The notes below the pieces were generated by a model that worked only from the letters and a program-made list of their open reading frames with translations, ran no database searches and had not been told where the DNA came from. A DNA stretch of 64,000 bases from Candidatus Nanohalarchaeota archaeon (GTDB lineage Archaea > Nanohalarchaeota > Nanosalinia > Nanosalinales > Nanosalinaceae): contig JALDAJ010000001.1 in NCBI GenBank assembly GCA_022729235.1, forward strand, positions 352,001-416,000, written 5' to 3'. Within the stretch, counting starts at the first letter, position 1; every line of letters starts with the position of its first letter. Made by a program: the position numbers and the translations under genes. Positions 14,423-41,201 of this stretch are shown in pieces.

Positions 14423-15309
14423 TAGCGATAATAATACCTGCGCTTAACGAGGAAGAAGCCATAGAATCAGTTATAGAAGGATTCCCGGCGAGCTACAGAA
14501 ATCACAGTATGGAGACGTACGTGATAGACGGTGGTTCAACAGATGGAACCCAGGAACTCGCGGAGAGTGCCGGTGCAAAAGTTATCAAGCAGAGACGTGG
14601 AGGCGGAAAAGGGAACGGGGTCAGCCAGGCTCTGGAAGAGATAGACGCAGATATATACGTAATGATAGACGGGGACTCCACCTATGACCCAAAAGAGATA
14701 GACAGACTCGTCGACCCTATAATAGAGGGAGAAGCGGAACACGTCATAGGCAGGCGTTCTGACCGGGAGAAAGGTGCTATACCACGTATCAACCTTGTCG
14801 GGAACTACGTCTTCAACCTGATAACCCGCCTGATGACAGGCAAGGACATCCGTGACATGCTATCAGGTTACCGGGCGTTTACCAGGGAATCCCTGGAACA
14901 CACACATTTCACAAGACCGGGTTTCGGCATAGAAACTGAGATGACGTTTACAGCGCTCGAGAACCATGTGCCGATAAAAGAAGTTGAAATCAGCTACGGC
15001 AACAGGAAGGGTAATAGTAAGCTCCACCCGATGAGAGATGGTTGGCGGATAATCAACACGATAATCTGGAGTATAAGGGACATGAACCCGCTCAAGTTCT
15101 TCTCGACTATATCGCTTTTACTCCTGGTACTTGCGGCATATCCCTCCTACCTGACCATCCAGCAGAAACTGTCCGAGGGCATCATACAGCACCCAGGAAC
15201 CGCGATAGCTGCGGGTGTCCTGGCTATACTTGCGGTGCAACTCTTCGTCTTCGGTATGCTAGCCGACCAGATCAAAAACGTGGAGAAACGGCTCAGAAAT
15301 CGTCGATAA
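14419..15309 (+). CDS. aglJ: AglJ-like GT2 dolichol-phosphate glycosyltransferase
   Basis: IPALNEE, DGGSTDGT, DGDSTYDP, DMLSGYRAF, two C-terminal TMs. Confidence 0.8.
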   Translation: MIAIIIPALNEEEAIESVIEGFPASYRNHSMETYVIDGGSTDGTQELAESAGAKVIKQRRGGGKGNGVSQALEEIDADIYVMIDGDSTYDPKEIDRLVDPIIEGEAEHVIGRRSDREKGAIPRINLVGNYVFNLITRLMTGKDIRDMLSGYRAFTRESLEHTHFTRPGFGIETEMTFTALENHVPIKEVEISYGNRKGNSKLHPMRDGWRIINTIIWSIRDMNPLKFFSTISLLLLVLAAYPSYLTIQQKLSEGIIQHPGTAIAAGVLAILAVQLFVFGMLADQIKNVEKRLRNRR

Positions 15310-16795
15310 CCGATTCATCCATCTCAACATTCTCCGATGTTACAGGTAAAGCCCGCCCGTCCATGTCACCGGGCACGCTCTCACCAAGCATAGTCAGCAG
15401 GGTCGGTGCTACATCGGTTATGTGACACTTCTCCAGTTCACTTTCCTCAATATCCGGTCCCGCGGCAGCGATGACGCCCTCCAGCCGGTGATGTCCGGAC
15501 TCGGTGTTGAATGGTTCGGAGAACACGTTGTTGGAGCCGAACTCGAAGTAACGGTGTGCCTGGTAATGCATCCCTGTAGTATGGTAAACCAGGTCGGGGG
15601 CAGTATCAGAATTCCTGCCGTGGAACAGCTTCTCTCCTGGTTCTATGTTCTCGACCACTTTCTCTCCCCCGTCCTCAAGATCCTGCAAGAGCTCAACGAC
15701 CTCCTGTTCTGCGTCACCATCCAGCAGGAAGATAGGTCCGAAGTGCATCGCGGAGTAAGCTTTCGACCGCTGGAAATCCACGTCCTTAAAGGAGAGAAAC
15801 GGTAGCGACAGCAGCCTGCGGACCCAGTCCCTATCAGGGTTATCCGTATTTGCCTTGACAAGCACCTCTTCAAGCCCCAGCCTCCTGACTATGCGGTATA
15901 TGTTCTCCATTGTAAGACCCAGTTTGAACGCGAGGTATCTTACCAGCGGTAACGGTCTCCTCTTGATTTTCAGTAGTCCTTCGTCCATCAGCAGCTTGTT
16001 GGGGTTCATACCTCTGTAGAGACCCGTAAACCCATGATCCGAGACCAGAACAACATTTGTTTCTCCCAGTCCGCCCGCTTCTTCTATCAGTTCCCCGATA
16101 GCGGAGTCGATTTCCTGGTAGACACGTTCGACTTCTCCCCTGTAATCAGACTCCTCGAACTCCGGGTGCTCCTTATCGTGGTATTTCCAGAACCAGTGGG
16201 ATATCCTGTCACCGACAGTAAAAACCGGCATGAAAACCTCAGGGCTGCGCTCCTTCATGAGCCTTAACGCAGTTCTCTTCCGGGTCTCAAGCGTCTCATA
16301 GCACTGTTCAATTAATTTCTCCTCATTTGAACCGTTATACGTCCCCGGTGTCTCTATCCGGTAGTCTTCTTCCTCCAGTATAGTTACCACTTCAGAATCA
16401 CCAGACGCCTTTTCTATAGACGGCGTCATCATACCCGACACCATAAACCCGTTGACCTCGCGCGGCGGGTACGTTGCGGGAATGTTCAGCGTCCCGACAG
16501 TGTAGTCTTCTGAAAATATATCAAATATCGTATCATCCTCGACATCATCGAAGCTTACAATCTCCAGACCCTTCCTTGTGGGACGGGTAAAGTCGAATAT
16601 CCCGTGTTTCCCCGGATTTTTCCCGGTCAACATTGATGTCCAGGCAGAAGGCGTTATAGGTATCGACGTAGACTCGAGTTCGCCGAAGACTCCTTGCTCC
16701 GCTATCCTCTTGATGTTAGGCAGCTTTCCATCATCCATGAGTTCCTGCGTCAGTTCGTGGTCCGCACCGTCAAAACCTATGACAAGAAGCTGCAT
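15293..16795 (-). CDS. Alkaline phosphatase superfamily (type I phosphodiesterase-like) protein
   Basis: VIGFDGA, PITPSAWTSMLTGKNPGKHG, SDHGF, GHH. Confidence 0.9.
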   Translation of the reverse strand: MQLLVIGFDGADHELTQELMDDGKLPNIKRIAEQGVFGELESTSIPITPSAWTSMLTGKNPGKHGIFDFTRPTRKGLEIVSFDDVEDDTIFDIFSEDYTVGTLNIPATYPPREVNGFMVSGMMTPSIEKASGDSEVVTILEEEDYRIETPGTYNGSNEEKLIEQCYETLETRKRTALRLMKERSPEVFMPVFTVGDRISHWFWKYHDKEHPEFEESDYRGEVERVYQEIDSAIGELIEEAGGLGETNVVLVSDHGFTGLYRGMNPNKLLMDEGLLKIKRRPLPLVRYLAFKLGLTMENIYRIVRRLGLEEVLVKANTDNPDRDWVRRLLSLPFLSFKDVDFQRSKAYSAMHFGPIFLLDGDAEQEVVELLQDLEDGGEKVVENIEPGEKLFHGRNSDTAPDLVYHTTGMHYQAHRYFEFGSNNVFSEPFNTESGHHRLEGVIAAAGPDIEESELEKCHITDVAPTLLTMLGESVPGDMDGRALPVTSENVEMDESVIDDF

Positions 16796-19155: not shown

Positions 19156-19581
19156 ATGAGCCTCTCATACCTCCGTTCAGTGATGGTCGGCGAGTCAAAA
19201 GCCTATGGATTCACTATCGCGTTCTGGGGGTCCGGTATAATACTGGTAGACTTCCTGGGGATGCCAGGACTTACTGAGGCGCTTTTATTCGGTTTTGGAG
19301 CAGTCATGGGTTTTGGGTTGTTAGCGATCTTTGCATTTAGAGGTAACCTGATGGAGGAAAGTCCAACGAACCTGCTCGTCTTCAGCTCTGTCCACTACCT
19401 GTCTGCATTATTCCCTGTTGCAGTCTCCTACCTGATCGTACAGTACGTCGCCAGTACGGCAGCAGCTTTTTTCCTCGCCGGTATGAATGTATCGGTTTTC
19501 TATAACCTGTTGATGGTTGTAGAGAAGATGTTTGCCGATAAAGGTATTGCAATTGAGAGAAAGATTGAATCTTTCTTTTAG
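19156..19581 (+). CDS. Hypothetical membrane protein (4 TM)
   Basis: AYGFTIAFWG, hydrophobic profile. Confidence 0.7.
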   Translation: MSLSYLRSVMVGESKAYGFTIAFWGSGIILVDFLGMPGLTEALLFGFGAVMGFGLLAIFAFRGNLMEESPTNLLVFSSVHYLSALFPVAVSYLIVQYVASTAAAFFLAGMNVSVFYNLLMVVEKMFADKGIAIERKIESFF

Positions 19582-20327
19582 TCATCTATGTCCATCCAGC
19601 CCCCGCCGTAGATGTAGCCAGCAAGAGACCTCTCCGAGGCAAGTTGCTCGAATACGTCCTCAAGGCTGTCACTGTCAAGCCGGTCAAATATCTCCGGGTC
19701 AAGCACATAAGTCCCCGCGTTTATCAGCCTTGAAGGCTCTTTTCCAGGCTCAGGCTTCTCCTCGAAGCCCAGTATCCGACTCCCTTTCAACCGGGCGACC
19801 CCATACTTTGAAGGGTCTTCGACAGTTGTCAGCGCCATAGTCGCGAGCACGTCTTCCTCCCTGTGGAGGCTCATCATCTCGTTCAGGTCAACGTCGCTTA
19901 TCACGTGACCGTTCAGTACGGCAAACATACCCTCGACCGCATCCTCTACAGTTCTCAGCGCTGCAGCCGTTCCCCGTGGGTCTTCTTCAAATACGTAATC
20001 CAAAGCCATACCGGAACTACTGGAGCCGAAATACTCCTCTATACCCTCGTTCCGACCAGCCAGGAGCACGACCCGGTTAACTCCTTCATCGGAAAGGTGT
20101 TCAAGCACGTGTTCAAGGACAGGTTTACCCTCATACTCCTCCATGGAACGGTTCTCTTCGTCACCACAAAGGACAACCGCAGTATCTACAGATTTACCCC
20201 GGAAGTAACCGTCTACGAGGTCTTCAACCATCTGTGAACGGTTAAGACCCTTGCCCGACGCCTCCTCATCGATTTTCTCGACCAGTTCTTCCTCAAGTGT
20301 AAGGGAAACTCGTTTCTTGGGCATCAT
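19578..20327 (-). CDS. Ribbon-helix-helix domain fused to a degenerate sugar-phosphate nucleotidyltransferase
   Basis: N-terminal KKRVSLTLEEELVEKIDEEA...NRSQMVE; then NTP_transferase-like GKPVLEH, PRGTA, YGV, EKP, INAGTY, WMDI. Confidence 0.85.
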   Translation of the reverse strand: MMPKKRVSLTLEEELVEKIDEEASGKGLNRSQMVEDLVDGYFRGKSVDTAVVLCGDEENRSMEEYEGKPVLEHVLEHLSDEGVNRVVLLAGRNEGIEEYFGSSSSGMALDYVFEEDPRGTAAALRTVEDAVEGMFAVLNGHVISDVDLNEMMSLHREEDVLATMALTTVEDPSKYGVARLKGSRILGFEEKPEPGKEPSRLINAGTYVLDPEIFDRLDSDSLEDVFEQLASERSLAGYIYGGGWMDIDD

Positions 20328-20377: not shown

Positions 20378-21277
20378 GTGATAGCGGTAACAGGCGGTGC
20401 TGGGTTCATCGGTTCAAGGCTCGCGGAGAGACTGGTTGAAGAAAATGAAGTAATAGTGGTAGACAACCTGTCCTCTGGTAAAAAGGAGAATATTCCCGAA
20501 GGAGCAGAGTTCGTAGAGAAAGACATAAAGAACGCTGAACTAGACGTAATCTTCGATAAGGTCGATACAGTCTTCCACTTCGCAGCCAATCCCAAAGTCA
20601 ATACGTTCCCTGACGACAGAGGGAAGGATTTCGAGGAGAACCTGGTAGGAACCAAGAACGTTCTCGATGCATGTGTTGACGCAGATGTAGAAGAACTGGT
20701 GTTTGCATCTTCTTCCGTCGTGTACGGAGAAAACGCGGAGATACCGACACCTGAAACGCATGAGATAGATCCTATCTCAATGTACGCCGCGACGAAATGC
20801 GGTGCAGAACACATGTGCCAGGTCTACTCCCAGATATTTGGCATCGACCTGACGGTACTCCGGTACGCGAACATCATCGGACCAAGGAATCAGAAGGGTG
20901 TGATCTGGGACTTCATACACAAGCTGGAAGAGAGTTCTGAAGAACTTGAGATACTCGGCAACGGGAAGCAGAGGAAGTCCTACCTCTACATCAGCGATGC
21001 TGTTGACGCGACCCTGGAAGCGTGGAAGTCGCCAGAAACAGTGTACAACATCGGAAGCGGAGATGCGGTTTCAGTAGATAAGATAGCGGAGATAGTATCA
21101 GACGAGATGTCGCTGAATCCTGAACTCTCCTACACGGGCGGCGAGAAAGGCTGGAAAGGAGACGTACCCGAGATGCGGCTCAGCATCGAGAAGCTGAAGA
21201 ACGAGGGATGGTCACCGGAGGGAAACTCAGTGGAAAGTGTGAGGAAGACCGCGAGAAGACTTCTCGAAAACCGTTAA
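20378..21277 (+). CDS. NAD-dependent epimerase (UDP-glucose 4-epimerase-like)
   Basis: GGAGFIGS, SSSVVYG, YAATK; start GTG at 20378 or 20360. Confidence 0.9.
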   Translation: MIAVTGGAGFIGSRLAERLVEENEVIVVDNLSSGKKENIPEGAEFVEKDIKNAELDVIFDKVDTVFHFAANPKVNTFPDDRGKDFEENLVGTKNVLDACVDADVEELVFASSSVVYGENAEIPTPETHEIDPISMYAATKCGAEHMCQVYSQIFGIDLTVLRYANIIGPRNQKGVIWDFIHKLEESSEELEILGNGKQRKSYLYISDAVDATLEAWKSPETVYNIGSGDAVSVDKIAEIVSDEMSLNPELSYTGGEKGWKGDVPEMRLSIEKLKNEGWSPEGNSVESVRKTARRLLENR

Positions 21278-21648
21278 TCTTCTACTCTCTTCTCTAACTT
21301 GATCCTGTCTGTAAACCGGTCGTACTTTTTATCGCTCGACACAATCCGGTCACCCCCAGATCTTACGAGGTGTAGGGCATCAAAAGGCGTGAAACCATCC
21401 TCTTCAATGTATAAAGCCGCGACCTCTATCGCTTCACTATCTCCTTTCACCTCGATAAGTTCTACAGTCTCCGAGACCAGCTTTACAACATTCATGCCCT
21501 CCCTATAACCAACCATCATCAGCTCGACCAGAGTGTATTCCGAAGTCCACAGGTCATTCTTGTGCTCCCTGAAAACCTCTTCCGCAGCTTCTGTTAACCA
21601 GTCTTCTTCCTGTATGAGCGCCAGCAAGAAATCGGTATCAGCGTACAT
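21274..21648 (-). CDS. vapC: VapC-type PIN toxin
   Basis: MYADTDFLLAL, E, FDALH, SSDKKYD; ATG at 21648. Confidence 0.88.
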   Translation of the reverse strand: MYADTDFLLALIQEEDWLTEAAEEVFREHKNDLWTSEYTLVELMMVGYREGMNVVKLVSETVELIEVKGDSEAIEVAALYIEEDGFTPFDALHLVRSGGDRIVSSDKKYDRFTDRIKLEKRVED

Positions 21649-21649
21649 C

Positions 21650-21874
21650 CTATCTTCCTGCCTGCTCCTTTGCCTCTTCAAGAGCTTCTTTTTTGAGTTC
21701 ATCAACAGACTTATCTACATCAGAGAAATTTTGCCTGAGAGCTTCCAGCGGGTCGCTGGACACCGGTATCAGAACCAGTCTATCGCCCTTGCGAACTAGG
21801 TGAAACCGTTCACCCAGATCCCTCCGAACATCCTTCGGAATGTAAATCCGCCCATCTGATACATCCACTTCCAT
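21650..21874 (-). CDS. AbrB/MazE-type antitoxin
   Basis: DGRIYIPKDVRRDLG; directly upstream of the PIN gene. Confidence 0.88.
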   Translation of the reverse strand: MEVDVSDGRIYIPKDVRRDLGERFHLVRKGDRLVLIPVSSDPLEALRQNFSDVDKSVDELKKEALEEAKEQAGR

Positions 21875-22395: not shown

Positions 22396-23310
22396 TCACA
22401 TATATCCAAGCTGTCTCAGGCGATTCATTATCTCTTTGTCGTCCTTGTTCTGGGCTCTTCCAGCGCGTTCCTTAGTGTTCTCCACATCCTGGAGCCACGC
22501 CGGCATCTCATCGCTCTTGTCTGTCGAGACCTCCGAGCCGAGCGAGCGGTATCCTGCCCAGTACTTCGGGCTAATCGGGACATCCTCCTTGGAAACTCCT
22601 TCCGGCAGGTCGTCCTCGCTTTCAGGGTACTCGTCAAGTTCCACATCAGTCACATCCGGCACCATGTGGAACCAGGATACGTCCCAGACCTCTCTTTCGT
22701 CGAACTGAAGGATAGGGTGGACGCGCATGTGTCCGGGATTGTCTCTCGGAGAGTAGAAGTCCTCGTCACCTCTCGACTCGTGTTCATCCCACCGCACACC
22801 GTTGATTACCGCGTCGATACCATGGTTCTCCAGCAGTTCGTTCATCGGAACCGTCTTCAGAAGGTGGTTGCCCGCCTCAGTATCCATCAGCCACGGCACC
22901 TCCTCGTAGTCTCCAACGCGTTCCGCCTCTCTCTGGTTCCGTTCGTTTAACTCTTCGACAGGTACTTTGTCACCGGGCTTGTCAGCCTTTTCTATCAGGT
23001 CCTCGTTCTTCGCGACCATGATGTCGAAGCCCCATTTCTCCGCTATCTCTTTTACGTAGTCCTCCAGCTCGTCAAAGTGCTGTCCATGGTCCACGAACAT
23101 GAACCGTGGTTTCTCGAATCCTTCGTCCTCACAGACTCTCTTCACGAGCCACGCCGTTAAAGTAGAGTCTTTACCACCGGTGAAGCCGATGACAGTGTTC
23201 CCAGAGTCGTGCTCCTCAAGGGCGCGCTTAACGACTTCCTCGCCGGCGCGAATCTTGGCTTTTAACGGTGCGTTCTCGATCTCGTCACGTGTTACAGGCG
23301 GTTCAGGCAT
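22396..23310 (-). CDS. PAPS-reductase-family PP-loop protein, probably CysD-like sulfate adenylyltransferase
   Basis: FTGGKDS, GVRWDEHESR, RVHPILQF, GYRSLG, ERAGRAQ, C-terminal RLRQLGYM. Confidence 0.75.
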   Translation of the reverse strand: MPEPPVTRDEIENAPLKAKIRAGEEVVKRALEEHDSGNTVIGFTGGKDSTLTAWLVKRVCEDEGFEKPRFMFVDHGQHFDELEDYVKEIAEKWGFDIMVAKNEDLIEKADKPGDKVPVEELNERNQREAERVGDYEEVPWLMDTEAGNHLLKTVPMNELLENHGIDAVINGVRWDEHESRGDEDFYSPRDNPGHMRVHPILQFDEREVWDVSWFHMVPDVTDVELDEYPESEDDLPEGVSKEDVPISPKYWAGYRSLGSEVSTDKSDEMPAWLQDVENTKERAGRAQNKDDKEIMNRLRQLGYM

Positions 23311-24065
23311 TAGTTTTCACCAGTATTTTTTGTTGCATAGAGAATCCCTGTTCCGGAACTATGAGATACGAAATCTATCTCGAACCCGTTTTCCTCTAGT
23401 TTTTCGATTATCGGTTTCTCGGTGCTGTGAGTCTCCATGGCTATTTTCTGTATCTTCACGAGATTCTCGGGCGTGATAGCCTCGAATATATCGGCTTCAC
23501 TGCTTTCGCAGTCGACCTTGAGAAACTGTATTTCGCCTACCTCGTCCACAACATCATTTATTGAGACCGTTTCTATCTCCTGGTCGCCCTCATCTCTTAC
23601 CGAGTTAGTACCTGTCTGACCGGATTTTTTGAGTTTCTCAGTTCCTGTGGTGGCGTAAACCGCCTTATTCCGTGTATCAACGTTTTCTAGGTCGTTACGC
23701 CTCACGTTCTCCTCAAATATCTCGAAGTTCTCTTCCTCTGGCTCGAAGCTGTAGACTTTCCCGGCGTTCCTGGCAGCCAGGACAGTAAATGAACCTATGT
23801 GGGCGCCGATATCTACCACGGTGTCACCTTCTTCAACGCCGAAGTTCTTGGTGTAGTCTTCGTCTACAAAGATCTCTCTCAGGACGTACCTGTCATCAGT
23901 GTTCCCTCTCGCCAGGAATTCTTCGCCTTCACGCGTCCAGTAAGTAATCCTGTCTTTCCTGAGCAACTTGTTGAGGTAAAAATCATACCAGTTATCGAAA
24001 ACTCTTATACGTCCTTTAAACGCCTTTAAAGCCTCGGAAAACTTAACCACTACTTTCCACTCCAT
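23310..24065 (-). CDS. FkbM-family methyltransferase
   Basis: VVDIGAHIG, SFEP, LKVDCE. Confidence 0.9.
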   Translation of the reverse strand: MEWKVVVKFSEALKAFKGRIRVFDNWYDFYLNKLLRKDRITYWTREGEEFLARGNTDDRYVLREIFVDEDYTKNFGVEEGDTVVDIGAHIGSFTVLAARNAGKVYSFEPEEENFEIFEENVRRNDLENVDTRNKAVYATTGTEKLKKSGQTGTNSVRDEGDQEIETVSINDVVDEVGEIQFLKVDCESSEADIFEAITPENLVKIQKIAMETHSTEKPIIEKLEENGFEIDFVSHSSGTGILYATKNTGEN

Positions 24066-24825
24066 AGTAAGCTTTTATCGCTTTCCCGACGTCCTCAGGC
24101 TGTCCTATCTTGTAGTCAAGGTTTTTCTTGATAAGTACCGCGTCCTCGTGGTGGTCACCCTCCAGCTCTCCGTGAGGTGTTTCCTCCGGTAGAGTCTGTA
24201 CACGACCTTCTCCAAACTCCGCGAACCCGTGGTCGCTCAGGACTATCAGCGGCTCGTCAGAATCAAAGTCATAGTACTCCAGTAGTTCTCCGAGGACGTC
24301 ATCCATCCTCCGGTACCAGTCCAGGACAAGTTCTTTGTCGTTCCAGTAGAAATGACTGACGCGGTCGAGCTGCATGAAGACAACGGCGAAAAAGTCCGGC
24401 TCCTCTTCAAGGACTTCTCTGCATTTCCTGAGTAGTTTCCTGCGGTCTGCTTCCAGCTCGTCGAGGTCGCTGGATACGCCGAAACCTTCCGGCTCGTAAT
24501 CCGTATTATAGTTAATCGGCGGTATCACCGCAGGTACCTGTAGAACGCGGGCTTCAACCTCTTTGTCAAACTCCTCCCAGACAAATGTGCCGTCGATGTC
24601 TCCCTGTTTCTGTAGTTCGTCATCGACCACGAAGTCTTTATGGCCGTGTTCTTCCTGTCTCAACCCTGTGAAGATTGATGTCCAGAGAGGCGCGCTTTTA
24701 GGCGTTTCTTCGACGGTAATGGTCTTGTACTCGCACTCTCGCATGAGCCTGTCGAAGTTCGGTAACTCGTCCCTGTGAGGCTTGATGATATCCCATGTCG
24801 CGGCGTCTATCCCTATTACCTTCAT
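24043..24825 (-). CDS. Short alkaline phosphatase superfamily protein
   Basis: VIGIDAATW, SAPLWTSIFTG, LDRVSH, SDHGF, GDHH; 5' end ambiguous (see findings). Confidence 0.88.
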   Translation of the reverse strand: MKVIGIDAATWDIIKPHRDELPNFDRLMRECEYKTITVEETPKSAPLWTSIFTGLRQEEHGHKDFVVDDELQKQGDIDGTFVWEEFDKEVEARVLQVPAVIPPINYNTDYEPEGFGVSSDLDELEADRRKLLRKCREVLEEEPDFFAVVFMQLDRVSHFYWNDKELVLDWYRRMDDVLGELLEYYDFDSDEPLIVLSDHGFAEFGEGRVQTLPEETPHGELEGDHHEDAVLIKKNLDYKIGQPEDVGKAIKAYYGVESSG

Positions 24826-24882
24826 TCGAAAACTCGCCTCGCGTGTTTTCTGCAAGAAGATTTTGTAAATCTTCGTTCGAAA
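24823..24882 (-). repeat. Double-hairpin palindromic insert flanked by TTCGAAA direct repeats
   Basis: ttcgaaa at 24825 and 24876; hairpins gaaaac..gttttc (24828-24850) and gaagattt..aaatcttc (24856-24874). Confidence 0.65.
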
Positions 24883-24908
24883 CTCACCTGATTTTCAACC
24901 ATTATCCT

Positions 24909-25109
24909 CTACTCCATGTATCCTAGTTCCTTCAGTTTCTTCCCGATTTGTTTAGCTTCTTCCTCGGATATCTTTTCCTCGGATTCCATATCCTTGACCG
25001 CTACGTGCTCCAGGAAGCTCCTGACGGAGCCGAAGGACTGGTCCTCGATGTAATCTTTAACGTCTTCCACGAAATCTCGCTTGAATGAGACGGTCGTATA
25101 ATCCGACAT
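24909..25109 (-). CDS. Small RHH/CopG-like protein with C-terminal LGY tail
   Basis: YTTVSFKRDFVEDVK..F.SV..F; ends KKLKELGYME. Confidence 0.85.
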   Translation of the reverse strand: MSDYTTVSFKRDFVEDVKDYIEDQSFGSVRSFLEHVAVKDMESEEKISEEEAKQIGKKLKELGYME

Positions 25110-25204
25110 CTTAATTAAATTTAATTAACAACCGCTTATAAGTCCTTGGAGATCCTCTGTCCGCACTGGAACCCTATTAAATCCAGAAGACCGGAAACTA
25201 GTGT

Positions 25205-26737
25205 ATGTCGAACAGAACCCTGAATATACTGGTAAAGGGTGCAGGACTCGCCGCATTGGGAATGGTGATTTCCAAGTTCCTGAGCTACCTCTACCGCGCC
25301 GTAGTCGCCCGGATGATAGGACCGGAGGCTTACGGTCAGCTCTCGCTGGCGCTGATGGTTCTGAACGTTGTCGGCGTAATCGCTTACCTCGGGCTTGACA
25401 CAGGGATGCAGAAGTTTATCGCGAAGTACCGCGAAAAGAATGAACCGTCCTCTATCAGAGGTACATTTCTCTCCGCCTTCCACATCGGTATACCCGTTGC
25501 TCTCACGATGAGCGCTATCATGTTTCTTTCAGCAGACTTTGTCGCAATGAACATATTCGAGAGTCCTGAACTCGCACCTCTCATAAAGGTGCTGGCGTTC
25601 GTGCCGCCTTTCGGCGTGGTCTCCCAGATCAGTCTTTCAACCACTCTCGGCTTCGAGAAAATGAAGTACCGTGTACTGACAAAACAGGTATTCCAGAACA
25701 TCGTACAGCTACTGGCGACGGTAGGCTTCATCTACATGGGATACGGCGTCGTAGGCGCGGCAGGAGGCTGGCTTGTAGGAACAGTGCTTGGTGCATTCGC
25801 CATACTCTACTTCGCCTGGAAGTTGATCGGACCGTTGAAAGGCACCACCAGGGACTACAACCACCATGAGCTTTTCAACTACTCCTTCCCTCTTCTGCTC
25901 TCCGGCGTGATCGGCACTCTGCTCGGGATGGCGGATACCGCGCTGATAGGTTATTTCATGGACGATGCCTCGGTAGGATTCTACAACGCCGCTCTTCCTA
26001 TCGCTGCACTAATACTCCTGCCTTACAGCGCATTCAGCGGTCTCGCATTGCCCTCGATGTCCCGCGTGGTTGAAAGCGAAGAGCTGGAGCTGTCCTCGGT
26101 ACTGAAAACTCTTACACGGTGGACTTTCCTCGTATCATTCCCTGCAGCAGTCCTCATGATACTGTTCTCCGAGCAGGTCCTGCACCTGCTGTTCGGTCGA
26201 GAGTACACTGTCGCATCAACCGCATTAATCATCCTTTCTCTGGGCTACATGTTCTCGACAGCGGTAGGACACCTCGGAAAGGTCATCAAGGCGATAGGCA
26301 GGACAGAGATAATCTTCAGGAACACTGTCGGCAACCTATTTCTCAACATAATACTGAACGTGATACTCATCCCCCGGTACGGCATCGTCGGCGCGGCGAT
26401 AGCGACCGCCGTATCGACCGTTTTCGTCAATACTCTACTGTTGATAGAGACCTACTACTTCGAGAGAACGCATCCGTTCTCCCGGCACAACTGGAAACCC
26501 GTGGCGGCGGCGATACCTGGAGTCATACTGATCTACTTCGCGCTTGAAACCCTCTATACAACGGTGCCGTTCTGGACACTGGTACCCGGTGGAATCGCGT
26601 TCGGTGTAATCTACCTTCTCGCGGTGATAGGTCTCGGAGCTGTACGGGAAGAAGACCGCGACATAATCGTCGGCGGGTTCAGGATGATAAACCAGGAAGA
26701 ACTTGGCGAGAAAGTCGCCGACCTTTTAATTAGATAA
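25205..26737 (+). CDS. Oligosaccharide flippase (Wzx/AglR, MOP superfamily)
   Basis: Many TMs, GPEAYG, VGFYNAA, LIPRYGIVGAAIAT. Confidence 0.9.
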   Translation: MSNRTLNILVKGAGLAALGMVISKFLSYLYRAVVARMIGPEAYGQLSLALMVLNVVGVIAYLGLDTGMQKFIAKYREKNEPSSIRGTFLSAFHIGIPVALTMSAIMFLSADFVAMNIFESPELAPLIKVLAFVPPFGVVSQISLSTTLGFEKMKYRVLTKQVFQNIVQLLATVGFIYMGYGVVGAAGGWLVGTVLGAFAILYFAWKLIGPLKGTTRDYNHHELFNYSFPLLLSGVIGTLLGMADTALIGYFMDDASVGFYNAALPIAALILLPYSAFSGLALPSMSRVVESEELELSSVLKTLTRWTFLVSFPAAVLMILFSEQVLHLLFGREYTVASTALIILSLGYMFSTAVGHLGKVIKAIGRTEIIFRNTVGNLFLNIILNVILIPRYGIVGAAIATAVSTVFVNTLLLIETYYFERTHPFSRHNWKPVAAAIPGVILIYFALETLYTTVPFWTLVPGGIAFGVIYLLAVIGLGAVREEDRDIIVGGFRMINQEELGEKVADLLIR

Positions 26738-26759
26738 AAGCCTTCCATAAATAACGTAC

Positions 26760-27437
26760 GTGATAAAACGCAGATTAAAATCAGGGGTAAAGGAAAACAA
26801 AGCATCAGCACTGTTCCTGCTACAAATATACAAACACATCTTCCGGTTCTATTACAGGTTCAAGACATGGTGGATGTACGGCAGGAGATACGAGGCTGAC
26901 ATGGATCCTTTTAACCTGATCTGGGTAAATCCTGCGGAAATCGAGAACAAGTTGGAAAAGAAGGAACGGAAATACTTTTTTGCAAGCCATGTCCGGGGCG
27001 GAGACTGGGACCTCAAAACCGACGATTTTGAGAATTCAGGGCAGTTCAGGCGCGTAAAGAAAGTAGTGGAGGACGGAGATGGCGATGAAAAGACAAGAGA
27101 ACTCTACAATTCAATCAGGAAAAATGGGTACAAGACGCAGGAAGAACTCTCTAAAGAGACTGTCACAGCCACTTCCAAGGATACCACCATCGATCCCTAC
27201 CTGGGAGAGATAAACGAGATAATGGTATGCATAGGTAGAGAAGGAGACATACTATTCCGGGATGGCGGGCACCGTTTATCGATAGCTAAAATACTGGATA
27301 TAGAGAGCATACCTGTCAGAGTAGTCAAGAGACACCGAAAATGGCAGGAAAAAAGAGACAGGGCTATAAATAATCCTGAAAGCCTCGACGATAGATACCT
27401 GAGACATCCTGACATCAAGCCGCTTCTCAAAGACTAA
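26760..27437 (+). CDS. Hypothetical protein with ParB/Srx-like motif
   Basis: LYNSIRKNGY, IGREG, DGGHRLSIAKIL. Confidence 0.7.
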   Translation: MIKRRLKSGVKENKASALFLLQIYKHIFRFYYRFKTWWMYGRRYEADMDPFNLIWVNPAEIENKLEKKERKYFFASHVRGGDWDLKTDDFENSGQFRRVKKVVEDGDGDEKTRELYNSIRKNGYKTQEELSKETVTATSKDTTIDPYLGEINEIMVCIGREGDILFRDGGHRLSIAKILDIESIPVRVVKRHRKWQEKRDRAINNPESLDDRYLRHPDIKPLLKD

Positions 27438-27649
27438 TCCAGGTATCCCAGTCCGCGTAGCCGTTTCTTGACCTCTTCTTCCTCTTCCTCACTGTAAGAA
27501 GACTCCTGCTGTTCTTTCTCCTTCTTTATCTTATCGACGACCTGCTCAAGAAGGTGCTCGATGTATTCTCCCGTATCATCGAAGTCTTTTTCCTCTGCAC
27601 GCGCCTCTAGAACACTGTAAATATCATCGTCTACTTCAACTGTCGCCAT
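27434..27649 (-). CDS. Small RHH/CopG-like protein with acidic linker and LGY tail
   Basis: ATVEVDDDIYSVLEARAEEKDF..EYI; ends EEEEEVKKRLRGLGYLD. Confidence 0.85.
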   Translation of the reverse strand: MATVEVDDDIYSVLEARAEEKDFDDTGEYIEHLLEQVVDKIKKEKEQQESSYSEEEEEEVKKRLRGLGYLD

Positions 27650-27686: not shown

Positions 27687-28286
27687 TTATAGGTCAAGGG
27701 AGCCGAGCTTCTCACGGAACTCCTCGTTTCTGAGTAACGGTTCCGAGTCCCTATACGCACTCACCAGGTCGTTCCTACCACTCATTTGCTCTTCCACATC
27801 CCGGAGTATTCTTTTTCCTTTCCCACCACCGTCGAAGTATTCGTACAGCGACTCACACATCGCCAGATAGTTGAACATCGGGCTTTCCTCCCTGTAACGC
27901 TTCATACCGATAAGGTGTAGCCCGTCGTCCGCCCGGATGATATTCCCGTAGTTGAAGTTCGGGAAGTACACCTCGACACCTTTTTCTTCCAGCTGTTCCG
28001 AGAACCTGTACGCAGCCTCCATCAACTCACCGATGTTCCGGGAACGCGGGCGGAACTTCCTGCCCTCAATGAACCTGTCCTCTACAAGGCAGTACCCGTC
28101 TACCTCTTTTACGACCTCGAAAGGTTGTACCTCTATCTCGCGGTTAGCGGAGTTAACCCTCTCTATACTCTCCGCCGTGGAGAAATCAATCCTGTTCTCC
28201 GGCACCATCTTCAGTACTCTACCTTTGTCCGGCTGTATACTGGTGAGCGCGTTGCCAGTCCGGATTATACCGTCCTCGAAACTCAC
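27687..28286 (-). CDS. Hypothetical protein with degenerate kinase-like fold
   Basis: VLK, FIEG, NFNYGNII..LHLIG resembling APH/kinase motifs without the catalytic Asp residues. Confidence 0.55.
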   Translation of the reverse strand: MSFEDGIIRTGNALTSIQPDKGRVLKMVPENRIDFSTAESIERVNSANREIEVQPFEVVKEVDGYCLVEDRFIEGRKFRPRSRNIGELMEAAYRFSEQLEEKGVEVYFPNFNYGNIIRADDGLHLIGMKRYREESPMFNYLAMCESLYEYFDGGGKGKRILRDVEEQMSGRNDLVSAYRDSEPLLRNEEFREKLGSLDL

Positions 28287-30051: not shown

Positions 30052-30252
30052 ATGACATCGAAGTCTGTTCCCACGAAATTCCCTGAAAAAATGCTAGAAG
30101 AACTCAATGAAGCGGTAGAAGAAGGATGGTATGCGAACAGGTCAGAGCTTGTTAGAGACGCTGTAAGAGAGAGGTTACGGGAGCTGAAGTCAGAAAGACT
30201 GGAAGAAGCCATCAAGGAAGACGTGGAATGGGGTCTGAAAAGTGATCGATGA
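30052..30252 (+). CDS. RHH antitoxin
   Basis: VEEGWYANRSELVRDAVR; overlaps the PIN gene. Confidence 0.85.
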   Translation: MTSKSVPTKFPEKMLEELNEAVEEGWYANRSELVRDAVRERLRELKSERLEEAIKEDVEWGLKSDR

Positions 30253-30724
30253 AGCTGTTCTGGACGCCGGACCAGTTATACATCTAGAGCAGATAGAAAG
30301 CCTGGAGCTGCTGGATTTTATCGGAAAGATGTACGTTTCTGGAGAAGTGGCGGATGAGATAGGAAAAGGCATTACAGAACAAATCAACGTGGTGGAAAAA
30401 CCGCTCGAAGGAGAAGCAAAAGACAACGCAAAATACCTCAGCAACAAGTACAACATAGAACTCGGTGAGGCAACCGCGATATCGCTCTGCCAGCAAAAAG
30501 GTGTAAAGATACTATTTACAGACGACCTAAACGCAAGAAAAGTCGCGGAGAGAGTCGGTCTGGAGCCTCACGGGACACTAGCCATAGTCACAAGAGCCTA
30601 CTCCGAAGGTATAATAGAGGAAGAGAAAGCAAAGACAGTGATCGAACAACTACGGAAAGACTCCCGCCTCTTCCTAACATCAGACCTTGTAAGATGGGCG
30701 AAAGAAAGGATAGAAAAACACTGA
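30242..30724 (+). CDS. PIN-domain toxin (DUF3368-like)
   Basis: VLDAGPVIHL, GEATAI, TDDLNAR, HGTL. Confidence 0.85.
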   Translation: MIDEAVLDAGPVIHLEQIESLELLDFIGKMYVSGEVADEIGKGITEQINVVEKPLEGEAKDNAKYLSNKYNIELGEATAISLCQQKGVKILFTDDLNARKVAERVGLEPHGTLAIVTRAYSEGIIEEEKAKTVIEQLRKDSRLFLTSDLVRWAKERIEKH

Positions 30725-30774
30725 AAAGTTCGAAGTCCCATATCGCATAACCAACAACCACCATGTTAGATTTT

Positions 30775-30799
30775 TCTATCAAATGATAGATTTTTATAA
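30775..30799 (+). promoter_or_regulatory. Palindrome TCTATCA-aa-TGATAGA adjacent to a TATA-like box of the MNT-HEPN operon
   Basis: Perfect 7-bp inverted repeat at 30775-30790 followed by TTTTATAA. Confidence 0.5.
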
Positions 30800-30820
30800 C
30801 ACCAGATATAATTTTTGAAC

Positions 30821-31342
30821 ATGTACAGCGAGAACAAGCTGAAAGTGTTAGAACAGTTCTTTGAGAGACCGACGCACAGGTTCCAGCTCAGGGAGTTATC
30901 CAGAGCGTCAGATGTATCTCTGCCATCGGTCAAGAACTACATCGAGGAATTCATGGAACAGAGCCTCGTTGAACGCGATGAGGACGGAGTATACCCTGGA
31001 TACTCGGCATCCATGAACCAGAAATTCAAGCTTGAGAAAAAACTCTACACAGTCCGGAAGCTCCACAAAACAGGACTGATCGATAAAATCGTCGATGAAG
31101 TAACACCTGATGCAGTAGTGCTTTTCGGCTCAGCGGCAAAAGGAGAGGACATAGAACAGAGCGATATCGACATACTGGCAGTTTCCTCCGAAAAACAGAT
31201 ACATCTAGAGGAGTTCGAAGAAGAGTTAAACAGGGAGATAAACGTTACATTCGTGAAGACAGAGGAGCTGAAAAAGAACGAAGAGTTCGCGAACAGCGTC
31301 GCGAACGGCATAGTACTAGACGGATACCTGGTGGTCAGATGA
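30821..31342 (+). CDS. HTH-fused minimal nucleotidyltransferase (MNT antitoxin)
   Basis: LRELSR..VSLPSV HTH; LFGSAAKGEDIEQSDIDI. Confidence 0.9.
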   Translation: MYSENKLKVLEQFFERPTHRFQLRELSRASDVSLPSVKNYIEEFMEQSLVERDEDGVYPGYSASMNQKFKLEKKLYTVRKLHKTGLIDKIVDEVTPDAVVLFGSAAKGEDIEQSDIDILAVSSEKQIHLEEFEEELNREINVTFVKTEELKKNEEFANSVANGIVLDGYLVVR

Positions 31343-31770
31343 ACTGGGGAGAATGCAAGGGAGAGAAAGTATTCGAAAGACAGGTCAACCCGGAGGAAGC
31401 CAGATCGCTCCTGAAAATGGCAAGGCTAAGGAAAAAAGATAATGAAAGAAGGGAAGTCAGGGACGAAAACGTATCACTGATAATCGAAAGCCACTGGGAA
31501 ACGATCAAACAACTCTCCACAGGACTCCTGATACTCGAAGGCTACAAATCATACTCACAGGAATGCCTCATAGAATTCCTGAAAGAGTTCCACGAAATAC
31601 CGGAAAAAGACATCCAGAAGATGAACCAGGTCAGAAAACTCAGGAACGACATCGACTACCGCGGAAAATTCCTCGACCAGGACTACCTCGAAAGAAACCA
31701 GGAACAGATACACAACATAATCCACAAACTCGAACAAAAACTCGAAACCAAGCTTGAAGATGATACCTAG
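31339..31770 (+). CDS. HEPN-domain protein (MNT-HEPN pair)
   Basis: EGYKSYS, RKLRNDIDY; ATGA overlap with MNT. Confidence 0.8.
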   Translation: MNWGECKGEKVFERQVNPEEARSLLKMARLRKKDNERREVRDENVSLIIESHWETIKQLSTGLLILEGYKSYSQECLIEFLKEFHEIPEKDIQKMNQVRKLRNDIDYRGKFLDQDYLERNQEQIHNIIHKLEQKLETKLEDDT

Positions 31771-34558: not shown

Positions 34559-34577
34559 TAGTAAGTTAAGACGAAGT

Positions 34578-35411
34578 TCAGTCTTCCTTGAAAGCTGTAA
34601 ACCATCCGATCTTGTCTTCATAGCCAAACTTTTGGCGATTTCTGACCTCAAAGGTGTGTACCTCGTAGCCCTTGCTGTCTAGAATATCTTTAAGTTTTTC
34701 TTCATCATACTCAAAAGATAATCTTCCCTGTCCTTCGCCCGCCCCATGATGTTCAACTATAATTATTTCAGGACTTGAAGATAAGTTCTCTAATAAATTG
34801 AATTCACACCCATCACAGTCTATAGCTAAAACGTCATCTGCTTCAAGATCGGAAGAATCTAAATACTCATCCGTAAGTTCAGATTCCCCCTGTAATTGTT
34901 TTACATCACACCCCACCACTCTATTTCTGACATCAATAATTTCTGAAACATCGTTCAGTTCTGCAACATCTCGAACTCTTTCCGCTCCTTTTTTTGTAGC
35001 CTCATAAGTAACAACTAATCCTTGTTCTCCTGTAAGCTTCGCTGCGGCTATGCTAGAGACGCCATACCAACCTCCAACAACTATGACCTTATCTCCCTCT
35101 GAAACATTACTTCTAATTAACTCGGTGTAGTTCTCTTCATAACTAGGTTTGTCTCTATAGATGCCTAAAATACCGTCTGCCGGCTTACGTCTTCTTATCT
35201 TTACATTGTTGTATGTCTGATAACCAGTGTAGGGCAGAATTCTTCTAATAGAGTTCTTCCAGATAAAGACGAAACAGTAACTAGCTAACCTTACTATGTA
35301 TTTGTAGGTTCTAAAGATGAGAAGGGTTATTCCGCCTTCATTTAGCGCCTTTCTTATTTTGTCTATTTTGAAGTATGTATGGAATTTATCAAGCATGCTG
35401 AATATATGCAT
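34578..35411 (-). CDS. FkbM-like methyltransferase
   Basis: VIVVGGWYGVSS, YEA, LAIDCDGCE, IIVEHH. Confidence 0.75.
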   Translation of the reverse strand: MHIFSMLDKFHTYFKIDKIRKALNEGGITLLIFRTYKYIVRLASYCFVFIWKNSIRRILPYTGYQTYNNVKIRRRKPADGILGIYRDKPSYEENYTELIRSNVSEGDKVIVVGGWYGVSSIAAAKLTGEQGLVVTYEATKKGAERVRDVAELNDVSEIIDVRNRVVGCDVKQLQGESELTDEYLDSSDLEADDVLAIDCDGCEFNLLENLSSSPEIIIVEHHGAGEGQGRLSFEYDEEKLKDILDSKGYEVHTFEVRNRQKFGYEDKIGWFTAFKED

Positions 35412-35430
35412 ATAACAACAAGCTAGCTTT

Positions 35431-37375: not shown

Positions 37376-37378
37376 TAC

Positions 37379-38221
37379 CTAAAACTCCAGAGTCACTAGA
37401 CGCTTAATAGCTTTTCCGAGCGTAGGAATCAAACCATCATTTTTGAAAGAACGCAGGAACCTGTACTTATAAGTTGGCTTTTCACTTAATATTTTTAGAC
37501 TTCCGCTCCTCAAGAGAAACACCCTCATACAAGAAGATTTATTTATTTTTTCGGCAGCCTTCTTAGCATCTACCTTTATCCTATCTCCTATTTCAGAATC
37601 CACCTCAGTCAATCTACCATGAAATATTCTAACTTTGTTACTGACAAATCCTGGCTTGGCAAACCGACAGTTATATTCTGGCGTCAGAGTAGCAACTCTC
37701 AGATCACTTTCATAAATAGCTTTCCTAAAAGAAGGCTGTTCTCTCATCTGACCTTCTCTCCCTTCAGCACGTTCAAGATAAATTTCCCTCCACCTAGATA
37801 GCAACTCTCTAAAACCAGAATTATTCCGATATACAATTACACCGGTATTAAATGTAGAAAAACTTCTTGGAACATCTTCTAACATTTCCTGAAACCTAGC
37901 GGTTTCATGAGCTAGAGCGATATCAAACTCATCGAGCAGGTTAAACAATTCCGAGAAATCCTGATCTACGTAGATATCTGTGTCGAAAAATACAGTTCTA
38001 TCATATGGTGTTCGTTGAAGATGATTTATTTTATTACTCATATTTTTCGCAGAGTCATCGATAATCTTGATATCATCGAACTGATTTGCAGCGAGCCTTT
38101 CCTCATCAGTGATAAGCGTTACATGGGTATCCGGCATTTCGTTCTTCAAAATTTCAACAGATTTATTTGCTTCCTCAATATAGTCCTCTCCTACCGCAAT
38201 ATAGAGAACTCCTTCATCCAT
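37379..38221 (-). CDS. GT-A glycosyltransferase (GT8-like)
   Basis: GVLYIA, FFDTD, FNTGVIVY, EQPSFR, PEYN. Confidence 0.82.
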   Translation of the reverse strand: MDEGVLYIAVGEDYIEEANKSVEILKNEMPDTHVTLITDEERLAANQFDDIKIIDDSAKNMSNKINHLQRTPYDRTVFFDTDIYVDQDFSELFNLLDEFDIALAHETARFQEMLEDVPRSFSTFNTGVIVYRNNSGFRELLSRWREIYLERAEGREGQMREQPSFRKAIYESDLRVATLTPEYNCRFAKPGFVSNKVRIFHGRLTEVDSEIGDRIKVDAKKAAEKINKSSCMRVFLLRSGSLKILSEKPTYKYRFLRSFKNDGLIPTLGKAIKRLVTLEF

Positions 38222-39334: not shown

Positions 39335-40368
39335 TCCCTTATTGCCTCCTTCAGCCGAGAATAGTGGTCTTGGTTTAGTTCTTCTATCGATAAAGGTTCT
39401 GGTATTTCATCGGATATCGGCACATGTAACTCATCCGGTATTACTTCTGCAGCGCCAATAGTTTCTTGCATAAAGCAAGGTGTTCCTGCAGACATCATCT
39501 CTAGAGGTACTAATCCGAATGTTTCGTGTTCAGAAGTGTAGATTCCAAACTTTGCATTTGAGATAAACTCATCAAGCTCATCATCTGGAATAAAACCTAA
39601 TATCTCTAGCTGTACACCATTGTCTTCCGCCAGTTCTTCAAGCTCTCGCTTATATTCTTCATCTTTGATAGTTCCAGCCATTCTGAGTTTCTCTTCTCTT
39701 CCCTGCATCTCTTCTATAGCCTTCTCTAGATTCTTGTTCCTAGCAACTCTTGAGAGAACAGCGACATACTCTTCTGTTTTTTCCGTCTTTTCAATATGTC
39801 TAATAGGAGGATGTAAAACCTCCAGTTTGTCGGATTTTCCTAGGTCTGGGATAACTCTTTCTTTCATTGTCAGTTCCGAGTTTACGAAAATCCTATCCAT
39901 ATTTTCAAATGCCCTTCTCTCCAACCTTCTCAAAATAAATCCCAAAGTCCAAGAAATAGTTCTGACAGGTATAGCCATATCATAGCCTCTGTATAGCAAA
40001 TCACTGGTGTTATGCATGTACCAGATTACCTTAGTCCCATATTTTTTCTTGGCTCTGTACGCTAGTATCTCCGTAAGATCCTGATGACATATTACTACTT
40101 CATACTCTTCCAGGAATGACGGGTCCGCAAAAGCCGGTGCAATAGTGTTGAACGTTGTAGAAAAAGCAGTATCGAGCGCCAGACTTCGACCGTATTCGTA
40201 TATATCAATCTCTCCAGCTATCTCTGGGAACACATCTTCATCATATCTTAAGCACCATAAATCAGCATCAAGTTCTCTAGCATGCATCATACTTACTATC
40301 TCAGCACCATTTGGCCGTATGATATCGTTCTGCAATATAGCAATATCTAGGTCTTCAAAATCCTCCAT
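39331..40368 (-). CDS. GT4 glycosyltransferase
   Basis: GAE, VNS, ETFGLVPLEMM; ATG 40368 overlaps the upstream stop (TAATG). Confidence 0.88.
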   Translation of the reverse strand: MEDFEDLDIAILQNDIIRPNGAEIVSMMHARELDADLWCLRYDEDVFPEIAGEIDIYEYGRSLALDTAFSTTFNTIAPAFADPSFLEEYEVVICHQDLTEILAYRAKKKYGTKVIWYMHNTSDLLYRGYDMAIPVRTISWTLGFILRRLERRAFENMDRIFVNSELTMKERVIPDLGKSDKLEVLHPPIRHIEKTEKTEEYVAVLSRVARNKNLEKAIEEMQGREEKLRMAGTIKDEEYKRELEELAEDNGVQLEILGFIPDDELDEFISNAKFGIYTSEHETFGLVPLEMMSAGTPCFMQETIGAAEVIPDELHVPISDEIPEPLSIEELNQDHYSRLKEAIRE

Positions 40369-41201
40369 TATTCGATTACCTCCCAAGGCACCTTTCTAAG
40401 CGGCTTTAAATCCATTCCATCAGGATGACCGTATAATCCTTTTTCTCCTACCAAGTTCCCGTGATCCGAAGTTATCACGGTTTTGCCATCAAATTCCTCT
40501 GCGATTTTCTGTGCATAAGGCAGTACTTTTTCTAGATTTCTTCTATACCCTTGCCATACTTTCTCTTTCTCTAGCTCTCCTCGTTCAGCCAAATCCCAGA
40601 CTGAAAGGCTTGAGTCTCCTAGCCATCCTTCGCTATCGCTGAATCCGTCGCCATATTCAAAGTCTAAAAAGGGGTAATGAGGCTGTATAAAATGGATTAT
40701 CAGTCTTTTATCCGGGAAAAGTTTCTTTGCTGTTTCTGCTCTTTCAAAAACGTCTTCGGGAAGTACAGTTCCTTCTTCGTCATCCCAGGCTTCATTGAAA
40801 ACATCGAATTTTGCCTCGAATAAGTCGCTCTTGCCTACAAGTTTTTCTAGGAAAGTGTCCGAGAAAAAGGGATTTGCGGAAACGTAGATGATATCATCGA
40901 ACTCACCTTCGGAAAAAGTTCGTTCGATATATTCTGAAGTTGTACTTCCCAGACTTAATCTAGAGGAAGTATCCTCTCCCCTGGCCTCTTCGTATAGGTC
41001 GTGGCGGCATGCATCCAAGATAATCAAGTTATCCCACTCACCAGCCTCAAAAATCGATTCGGGCTCACTATCAATTTTCTCAATACCTCTAGAAGCCAAC
41101 GATTTAAGCAGAATAAGCAAACGGTGTGAACCTCTTACATCCTTAATCCTGGGAAAAACTCTCTCTTTGTAGTTCAGGTAGAAAGATTTAGCTAAAGCCA
41201 T
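40368..41201 (-). CDS. AlkP/sulfatase-core protein
   Basis: WDNLIILDACRHD, SANP, HFIQPHYPF, TSDHGN, HP, VPW. Confidence 0.85.
   Translation of the reverse strand: MALAKSFYLNYKERVFPRIKDVRGSHRLLILLKSLASRGIEKIDSEPESIFEAGEWDNLIILDACRHDLYEEARGEDTSSRLSLGSTTSEYIERTFSEGEFDDIIYVSANPFFSDTFLEKLVGKSDLFEAKFDVFNEAWDDEEGTVLPEDVFERAETAKKLFPDKRLIIHFIQPHYPFLDFEYGDGFSDSEGWLGDSSLSVWDLAERGELEKEKVWQGYRRNLEKVLPYAQKIAEEFDGKTVITSDHGNLVGEKGLYGHPDGMDLKPLRKVPWEVIE

Follow-up and report, generated by a model that had tools for sequence, protein, structure and literature searches.

A family of putative ribbon-helix-helix regulators with a C-terminal helix resembling the ends of sulfate-activating enzymes

A shared protein ending in a nanohaloarchaeal glycan cluster

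Why should an adenylyltransferase-like enzyme and two small proteins resembling DNA binders, all encoded within about 5 kb, end in the same short helix? This question is raised by a 64,000-nt stretch from a Candidatus Nanohalarchaeota archaeon (contig JALDAJ010000001.1, positions 352,001 to 416,000; hereafter the window), in which three genes encode proteins with the C-terminal motif (R/K)LxxLGY. A preliminary description of the locus had proposed that the two mini-proteins may not be simple repressors and could supply the tail in trans to enzymes of the alkaline phosphatase (AlkP) superfamily, either as a docking peptide or as a tyrosine carrier of activated sulfate or phosphate. Here we describe the mini-proteins as members of a family, named RHH-LGY after a putative domain of the ribbon-helix-helix (RHH) type and the tail, which is the first gene of operons combining sulfate activation with an NPP-type AlkP in many archaea and some bacteria. 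The reading we favour, with a probability of about one half, is that they are repressors with a tail that imitates the ends of pathway enzymes and acts as a docking or oligomerisation helix, and that no sulfate or phosphate is carried on the tyrosine.

The genome is a single contig of 1.03 Mb (1,027,595 nt) encoding acidic proteins, the closest homologues of which are nanohaloarchaeal by their database names. In a crude set of 1278 non-overlapping open reading frames (ORFs), the pattern [KR]L..LGY occurs five times. In four cases no more than 2 residues separate it from the C-terminus, a position for which composition predicts 0.012 occurrences. Three of the four carriers are the following window genes, named hereafter by their first coordinate, and all three ORFs and endings are as the preliminary description had given them:

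22396-23310, minus strand: PP-loop adenylyltransferase of the PAPS_reduct/CysD lineage, halophile subfamily, 304 aa, ending ...DKEIMNRLRQLGYM
24909-25109, minus strand: RHH-LGY mini-protein 1, 66 aa, heading its operon, a putative autorepressor, ending ...EEEAKQIGKKLKELGYME with the tail ...SEEEAKQIGKKLKELGYME
27434-27649, minus strand: RHH-LGY mini-protein 2, 71 aa, a paralogue of 24909, ending ...EEEEEVKKRLRGLGYLD

The fourth carrier, a membrane-anchored sulfatase-like protein of 459 aa, lies outside the window (G000 106734-108113). All three window proteins have the (S/T)xEE start, the [KR]LxxLGY core and 0-3 residues before the stop, and the whole module can be described as a capped amphipathic helix of 15-20 residues, (Y/F)(S/T)xEE...(V/I)xx(K/R)LxxLGY, followed by a hydrophobic residue. 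A literature search on a C-terminal LGY motif found nothing in print on this tail.

The mini-protein family and its operons

Neither 24909 nor 27434 has a match in Pfam or NCBIfam, and a direct BLASTP comparison of the two aligns the tail only. Their homology is evident from a 34-sequence family alignment, which unites them over a strand, two helices, an acidic linker and the (Y/F)(S/T)xEE...(K/R)LxxLGY module, with L59, L62, G63 and Y64 invariant in 34/34 members. The tyrosine is retained in all 89 members of the RHH cluster, three of which continue beyond LGY with a longer extension, and in 45 of 45 database homologues. Conservation in the mini-proteins is highest in the tail: homologues of 27434 (16 of 31 matches aligned) keep EEEE.VK.RL..LGYL unchanged down to 41% identity while the N-terminus drifts. 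Weak matches to RHH-type Pfam families were obtained for 4 of the 34 members (FitA-like for two, CcdA and RHH_1 for one each), comparison of the family by hhalign with the Pfam-positive RHH protein at 30052-30252 is in register at E 9e-4 with a weak probability of 22%, and the N-terminus of NikR is matched, again weakly, at E ~0.15. The paralogues 24909 and 27434 appear to be DNA binders, putatively of the RHH type. The N-terminal strand of 24909, YTTVSF, is of the type associated with the operator described below; 27434, the last gene of an operon with an NTP-transferase, a methyltransferase and a 199-aa protein, has the same tail and a diverged strand (MATVEVDDD). A literature search combining ribbon-helix-helix with sulfate adenylyltransferase in archaea returned nothing on this regulator family. 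Elsewhere in the genome, three small ORFs (G000 15591-15764, 74642-74797 and 1027147-1027284) match the N-terminal RHH part of the family profile only and have no tail.

The preliminary description had placed 24909 at the head of an apparent operon of RHH, AlkP, FkbM and CysD-like genes, which is tightly spaced, with a gap of 53 nt between 24909 and 24043 and overlaps of 23 nt and 1 nt thereafter. The two middle genes are:

24043..24855, minus strand: short tailless NPP-type AlkP (PF01663), Pfam 88.5 bits against a cut-off of 23
23310..24065, minus strand: FkbM-family methyltransferase within the RHH operon, assigned by Pfam/NCBIfam scan

A scan for relatives matched 602 stretches, 185 of which encode a relative; the best 80 loci were used, and 76 of them contain a family member. 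When neighbouring genes were grouped by clustering, three gene orders were found. The first, mostly in Asgard archaea, runs RHH, ATP sulfurylase (Sat), long PF01663 AlkP and adenosine 5′-phosphosulfate (APS) kinase (CysC). The second, in Halobacteriota, Dehalococcoidia, Bathyarchaeota and Thermoplasmata, has one or at times two RHH genes, at times TauE, and then CysD, CysN and a short PF01663 AlkP. The third, to which the window belongs, is seen in glycan clusters of Nanohaloarchaea and combines RHH with several AlkPs and a CysD-like gene. The co-occurrence with sat, cysC, cysD or cysN and with tailless PF01663 AlkP genes goes far beyond chance: among 52 loci with at least 5 kb of downstream sequence, a tailless PF01663 AlkP is present in 42, a sulfate-activation gene on the same strand in 41, and either in 45. 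None of 75 AlkPs at RHH-LGY loci has the tail. Across 61 genomes of the class, many of them incomplete, an RHH-LGY match was found in 36 (in one, G050, solely via the tail on a larger ORF) and a CysD-like gene in 35; 30 genomes have both, 6 the RHH-LGY gene alone, 5 the CysD-like gene alone and 20 neither. Among the 30 with both, 22 have the pair on one contig and no more than 5 kb apart. Since 24909 is 64% identical to a Halorubrum protein (P0043) and several Halobacteria encode proteins with about 53% identity to 22396 (P0285-P0315), the RHH-LGY/CysD-like module is common to nanohaloarchaea and to potential haloarchaeal host lineages.

The same helix at the ends of pathway enzymes

The C-terminus of 22396 follows the pattern ER.GR.Q.K..(4)M..LR.LGYM, and 92 of 120 homologues end in LGYM. 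The enzyme resembles CysD of the CysDN ATP sulfurylase (Protein Data Bank, PDB, 1ZUN) in its PP-loop GGKDS, in its PAPS_reduct fold (Z 17.7 for the model of 22396 against 1ZUN) and in the C-terminal ER.GR...GY(F/M). It differs in lacking the CysD insertion in the family alignment, in the absence of CysN from the genome, in a model that is no further from flavin mononucleotide adenylyltransferase and PAPS reductase (Z 21-22) than from CysD, and in falling far below all curated CysD cut-offs (76.3 bits against 195, 54.3 against 413, and 52.9 against 396.6); the name CysD-like given to it earlier therefore holds at the superfamily level and not for CysD proper. In an alignment that includes CysDs adjoining CysN (A5), residues G46, K47, D48, S49, E281, R282, G284, R285, Q287, G302 and Y303 are invariant. 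A bona fide CysD adjoining CysN (L014) aligns with 1ZUN to the last residues, with the 1ZUN end ...MEEKKRQGY(F) placed against ...MQKLRALGYM, and 22396 has the same invariant segment. On this alignment the tail of 22396 is the ancestral C-terminus of the CysD family, and not an added tag shared with the mini-proteins. In the library copy of 1ZUN chain A the model covers 204 residues (5-211) and so stops short of the CysD end.

APS kinases provide a second natural occurrence of the helix. Of the APS kinases in the operons, 33 of 39 end in ...L..MGYLPN under the looser pattern L..xG[YF]L (the strict tail expression matched 0/39), and in the solved structures 7YQ0 and 8A8H the native end ...LGYL is the last helix of the fold. 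These kinases share the module (S/T)xEE...L..LGYL with the mini-proteins; the difference is that the helix is integral to the kinase fold, as against an appendage on a linker. Phe stands at the tyrosine position in 4 of the 39, and Phe or Leu in 5.

These occurrences bear on the proposal that the C-terminal tyrosine is sulfated or phosphorylated, takes its group at the CysD-like enzyme and delivers it to transferases of the AlkP type. In favour of a carrier, the tyrosine is invariant in the RHH and AlkP tails, acidic residues are close by and the genes sit among sulfate-activation genes. Against this, the tyrosine belongs to a helix cap which forms the structural terminus of APS kinase, where Phe or Leu can replace it, and the mini-proteins have a conserved operator. 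The genome also argues against the idea: Sat and APS kinase were searched for and neither was found (completeness 95%), and a CysN query against the whole genome returned as best match a 434-aa EF-1-alpha-like gene beside an EF-2-like gene, 220 kb away, with none in the window. With no Sat, CysC or CysN in the genome, synthesis of 3′-phosphoadenosine 5′-phosphosulfate (PAPS) is doubtful, and activated sulfate may not be made. DltX-type peptides, the precedent cited earlier, are small membrane-embedded carriers with a C-terminal tyrosine that act with MBOAT proteins; the mini-proteins are likewise small with a conserved C-terminal tyrosine but are highly charged, have no hydrophobic or membrane segment and stand in the context of a DNA operator. 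A tyrosine carrier, which has found no positive support, is accordingly barely credible.

The soluble kinase fold is equally relevant to a different idea, that the tail is a membrane-targeting amphipathic helix bringing enzymes and regulator to lipid-linked glycan assembly on either face of the membrane. The helix is indeed basic, hydrophobic and amphipathic, its carriers occur on both sides of the membrane and the context is a glycan and flippase cluster; yet the invariance of L, L, G and Y is far stricter than such helices need, and in APS kinase this sequence closes a soluble fold as its final helix. We regard this explanation as very unlikely.

For the AlkP enzymes, two further window genes need to be introduced:

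15293..16795, minus strand: long tailless PF01663 AlkP of the type found in Sat-AlkP-CysC operons elsewhere, Pfam 110.2 bits against a cut-off of 23
40368..41201, minus strand: 277-aa protein with an SDHG motif and no tail, possibly AlkP-like (weak support)

That 15293, 24043 and 40368 all lack the tail was correctly noted before; the counting of 40368 as a third AlkP is weakly supported, given no Pfam match, an hhalign probability of 9% confined to the SDHG motif, and Atlas neighbours that are mostly unnamed, with PF00884 on 11% of members in one cluster. In 24043, which like its homologues probably begins at Met11 (24825), the metal ligands are conserved, and D17, D164, H168, S207, D208, H209 and H235 are invariant in 34 sequences. 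Like NPP/PF01663 phosphodiesterases such as the Xanthomonas NPP (2GSN), the window AlkPs match PF01663 and conserve the metal ligands; unlike them, enzymes of the window type are cytoplasmic and embedded in sulfate-activation operons, and no solved member has an LGY tail. A PF01663 profile (A2) run against the PDB met no chain that covers the tail positions. The earlier statement that AlkP enzymes can carry the tail in cis is borne out, since the full module ends 38 of 117 long and 2 of 33 short PF01663 homologues; in the 38 tails matching the pattern the tyrosine is always present, with no Phe variant among them. Other ends occur in this family: the long tailless AlkPs of nanohaloarchaeal loci L003-L010 and L013 have an acidic end of their own, approximately (S/T)EVxD(L/I)(D/E)(F/I/V), which was sought at the C-termini of this genome and found in 0/1278 ORFs, and on other long PF01663 enzymes (P0115, P0143, P0145, P0148, P0176, P0182 and others) a lysine-rich helix ...LKxxGKI/GRI replaces ...LGY.

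In AlphaFold2 monomer models, the tail helix of a cis-tailed AlkP has a confidence of about 72 against more than 90 for the core, and that of the CysD-like protein reaches 66-71 behind a hinge below 50. A tail helix modelled with only moderate confidence and set off by a flexible hinge is consistent with an element that depends on a partner. Prediction of a complex of AlkP 24043 (residues 11-270), the 24909 tail (residues 37-66) and two Zn ions scored 0.66, 0.69 and 0.66, against 0.02 and 0.02 in controls with the partner replaced and 0.50 in a control with an unrelated protein in place of the AlkP, a result that speaks neither for nor against docking.

Such a partner is specified by a version of the trans-tail proposal, in which the LGY helix would dock at a site on tailless AlkPs, one that cis-tailed relatives occupy with their own tail, and docking of the RHH and CysD-like proteins would form a complex that channels APS and sequesters the repressor. 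The constant partners of RHH-LGY genes are indeed tailless PF01663 AlkPs, relatives of which have the tail in cis, where it is not confidently packed in the monomer model. As APS formation is energetically very unfavourable, coupling CysD or Sat to a consumer would make sense. The operons offer exceptions to this scheme, though: three or four Sat-CysC operons with RHH-LGY have no AlkP (L018, L035, L043, L071), and in four nanohaloarchaeal genomes the RHH gene adjoins the CysD-like gene with gaps of 30-90 nt, leaving no room for an AlkP between them. We consider it rather unlikely.

A candidate operator upstream of the family

The region that 24909 shares with the neighbouring divergent gene contains a candidate operator:

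25112..25127, no strand assigned: operator candidate TAATTAAATTTAATTA, the core of an 18-nt perfect palindrome TTAATTAAATTTAATTAA at 25111-25128
25205..26737, plus strand: Wzx/MurJ-type flippase, divergent from the operator region, assigned by family scan

The palindrome sits between a TATA-like CTTATAAG (25135-25142) and the ATG of 24909 (25109), in the intergenic region common to 24909 and 25205. The arrangement TAATTA-N4-TAATTA is found once in the 1,027,595 nt of the genome, 3 nt upstream of the 24909 ATG, where 0.012 such pairs are expected and single copies of TAATTA number 109. With up to one mismatch the window still holds one site, a count that 7 of 100 shuffles attained. Relatives in distant phyla extend the observation: in 45 of the 76 loci the 120 nt upstream of the RHH-LGY gene hold one or more sites with no more than one mismatch, compared with 68 sites in 1,063,482 nt elsewhere in the same loci. 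Sites occur not just in AT-rich Asgard DNA but also in GC-moderate loci of Nanohaloarchaea (L004, L009) and in a locus of Thermoprotei (L016). Presence of the site tracks the strand motif [YH]TT[VI][ST], being found for 43 of 50 genes with the motif and 3 of 39 without, in a test that kinship inflates. Both motif and operator are present at 24909 and neither at 27434, upstream of which no TAATTA operator was found. Where RHH-LGY genes stand in tandem (L011, L014, L060, L064, L072, L077), the first gene ends in ...RLRRLGYL and has a conserved ACTACAATTAGAGTGTAA-like sequence upstream in place of the TAATTA repeats. With a repeated and palindromic site at this position, 24909 may act at TAATTA-N4-TAATTA of its own promoter. 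Contrary to the earlier proposal, the mini-proteins have the look of promoter binders of an ordinary kind whose operator is conserved.

In relatives the operators consist of two to four TAATTA half-sites in 10-bp phase, an arrangement that suggests the main rival to a docking or oligomerisation role. The tail could serve the repressor alone, its helix joining RHH dimers on half-sites 10 bp apart through cooperativity of the Mnt type, with the likeness to enzymes being convergence. Mnt has a C-terminal tetramerisation helix, and the mini-proteins resemble it and the other Arc/MetJ/CopG autorepressors in being small, with a putative strand and two helices, encoded by the first operon gene and associated with promoter-overlapping palindromic half-sites one helical turn apart. 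Capped helices of unrelated proteins, among them the last one of ribosomal protein L7/L12, are picked up by the LGY-tail profile as well. The mini-proteins depart from the known families in falling below Pfam RHH cut-offs, in their long acidic flexible linker, unlike Mnt, and in a C-terminal helix common to enzymes of the regulated pathway: the same module, including its (Y/F)(S/T)xEE start, ends 38/117 PF01663 enzymes as well as CysD and APS kinase, in the same pathway and operons. In addition, 27434 retains the tail without an operator. We give Mnt-like cooperativity a minor but appreciable probability.

What the tail may do

The reading that we prefer joins repression to mimicry. By it, 24909 would bind TAATTA-N4-TAATTA, overlapping its own promoter and that of the divergent flippase, and repress the operon of RHH, short AlkP, FkbM and CysD-like genes. 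The LGY helix, native in APS kinase as the last helix and in CysD as a mobile C-terminal segment, would have been copied onto many AlkPs and onto the repressor family, where it would dock or oligomerise by mimicking the enzyme ends. Two sulfate-activating enzymes naturally end in this helix as well, so the tail looks like a device for coupling regulator to enzyme rather than a chemical carrier. The sequences themselves show the tails, the family, the operon orders, the operator and the homology of the CysD end; repression and docking we infer, and the partner could be a tailless AlkP, another tail or the CysD-like enzyme. Repressor activity may in this way be tied to the amount or state of pathway proteins, as in the cysteine synthase complex, where the C-terminal tail of CysE inserts into CysK and CymR takes CysK as partner. 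Common to both systems are the setting in sulfur assimilation, a short C-terminal peptide that recurs on otherwise unrelated proteins, and a possible link between the state of an enzyme and transcription; the difference is that the CysE-type tail ends in ...GI, compared with a putatively docking LGY helix here.

Several points weigh against this reading. No partner has been found for the tail, and binding of 24909 to the operator is deduced from sequence features. The RHH assignment leans on profile scores that are weak but consistent. TAATTA sites arise more easily by chance in AT-rich Asgard loci, for which the background was measured in the same loci, and kinship among loci inflates the operator statistics. 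The tail and the CysC and CysD ends might resemble each other through convergence on a capped-helix pattern of a general kind, and the tail profile matches the last helix of L7/L12 too. As 27434 has the tail without the operator, it may not bind DNA, or may bind something else; as the fourth carrier is extracellular, one cytoplasmic partner cannot serve all carriers; and as the tyrosine is invariant in the RHH and AlkP tails, its hydroxyl may matter, perhaps for binding.

Other features of the cluster

The surroundings of these genes form a surface-glycan cluster with a PMT-like transferase, a GT2 glycosyltransferase, epimerases, nucleotidyltransferases, the Wzx-type flippase, methyltransferases and the two PF01663 AlkPs (15293 and 24043). 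Within it, a sugar-1-phosphate nucleotidyltransferase (19578-20327, minus strand) has an N-terminal RHH_1 domain at residues 6-38 (E 2e-6), an enzyme joined to a DNA-binding-type domain inside the same cluster as the RHH-LGY genes. An intein that contains a homing endonuclease of the LAGLIDADG type (Intein_splicing E 6e-25, LAGLIDADG_3 E 4e-16) interrupts a UDP-glucose 6-dehydrogenase (31850-34558, plus strand). The cluster is broken up at 21274-21874 and 30052-31770 by three small toxin-antitoxin-like pairs, namely MazE-like with PIN, RHH with PIN/DUF3368, and an NTP_transf_2 nucleotidyltransferase with an unannotated 143-aa partner. GC content is 0.41-0.43 across the glycosyltransferase block at window positions 34000-42000, down from about 0.50, which suggests a horizontally acquired or swappable section. 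Pfam and NCBIfam gave no match for 26760-27437 or 27687-28286, and a ParB/Srx-like identity considered for the former gained no support from the family libraries.

Implications for sulfate activation in archaea

If the preferred reading is true, RHH-LGY proteins constitute a regulator family not described before, one whose operator, TAATTA-N4-TAATTA, can be read. The family would govern sulfate activation in lineages that include Asgard archaea, Thermoprotei, Nanohaloarchaea and Dehalococcoidia. The reading would also draw attention to a cytoplasmic enzyme of the NPP type, as yet uncharacterised, that forms part of both types of sulfate-activation operon. A structural study of sulfate assimilation in a methanogen explicitly left open the PAPS-using "non-canonical sulfo-transferase" of such archaea (PMC10322725), for which the operon-embedded tailless AlkP is a concrete candidate; a literature search on the AlkP superfamily, sulfotransferase, PAPS and archaea gave nothing on an embedded AlkP among the matches listed. 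Taken further, the LGY helix might be a pathway-wide docking code, in which APS kinase, CysD and the repressor share one receptor, the tailless NPP-type AlkP acting as the long-sought non-canonical APS- or PAPS-dependent archaeal sulfotransferase, and free receptor would titrate the repressor off DNA such that enzyme stoichiometry sets transcription, an extension that we hold to be unlikely. For the mini-proteins themselves, the preferred reading would make the LGY tail a rare case of a regulator that copies the terminus of the enzymes under its control.

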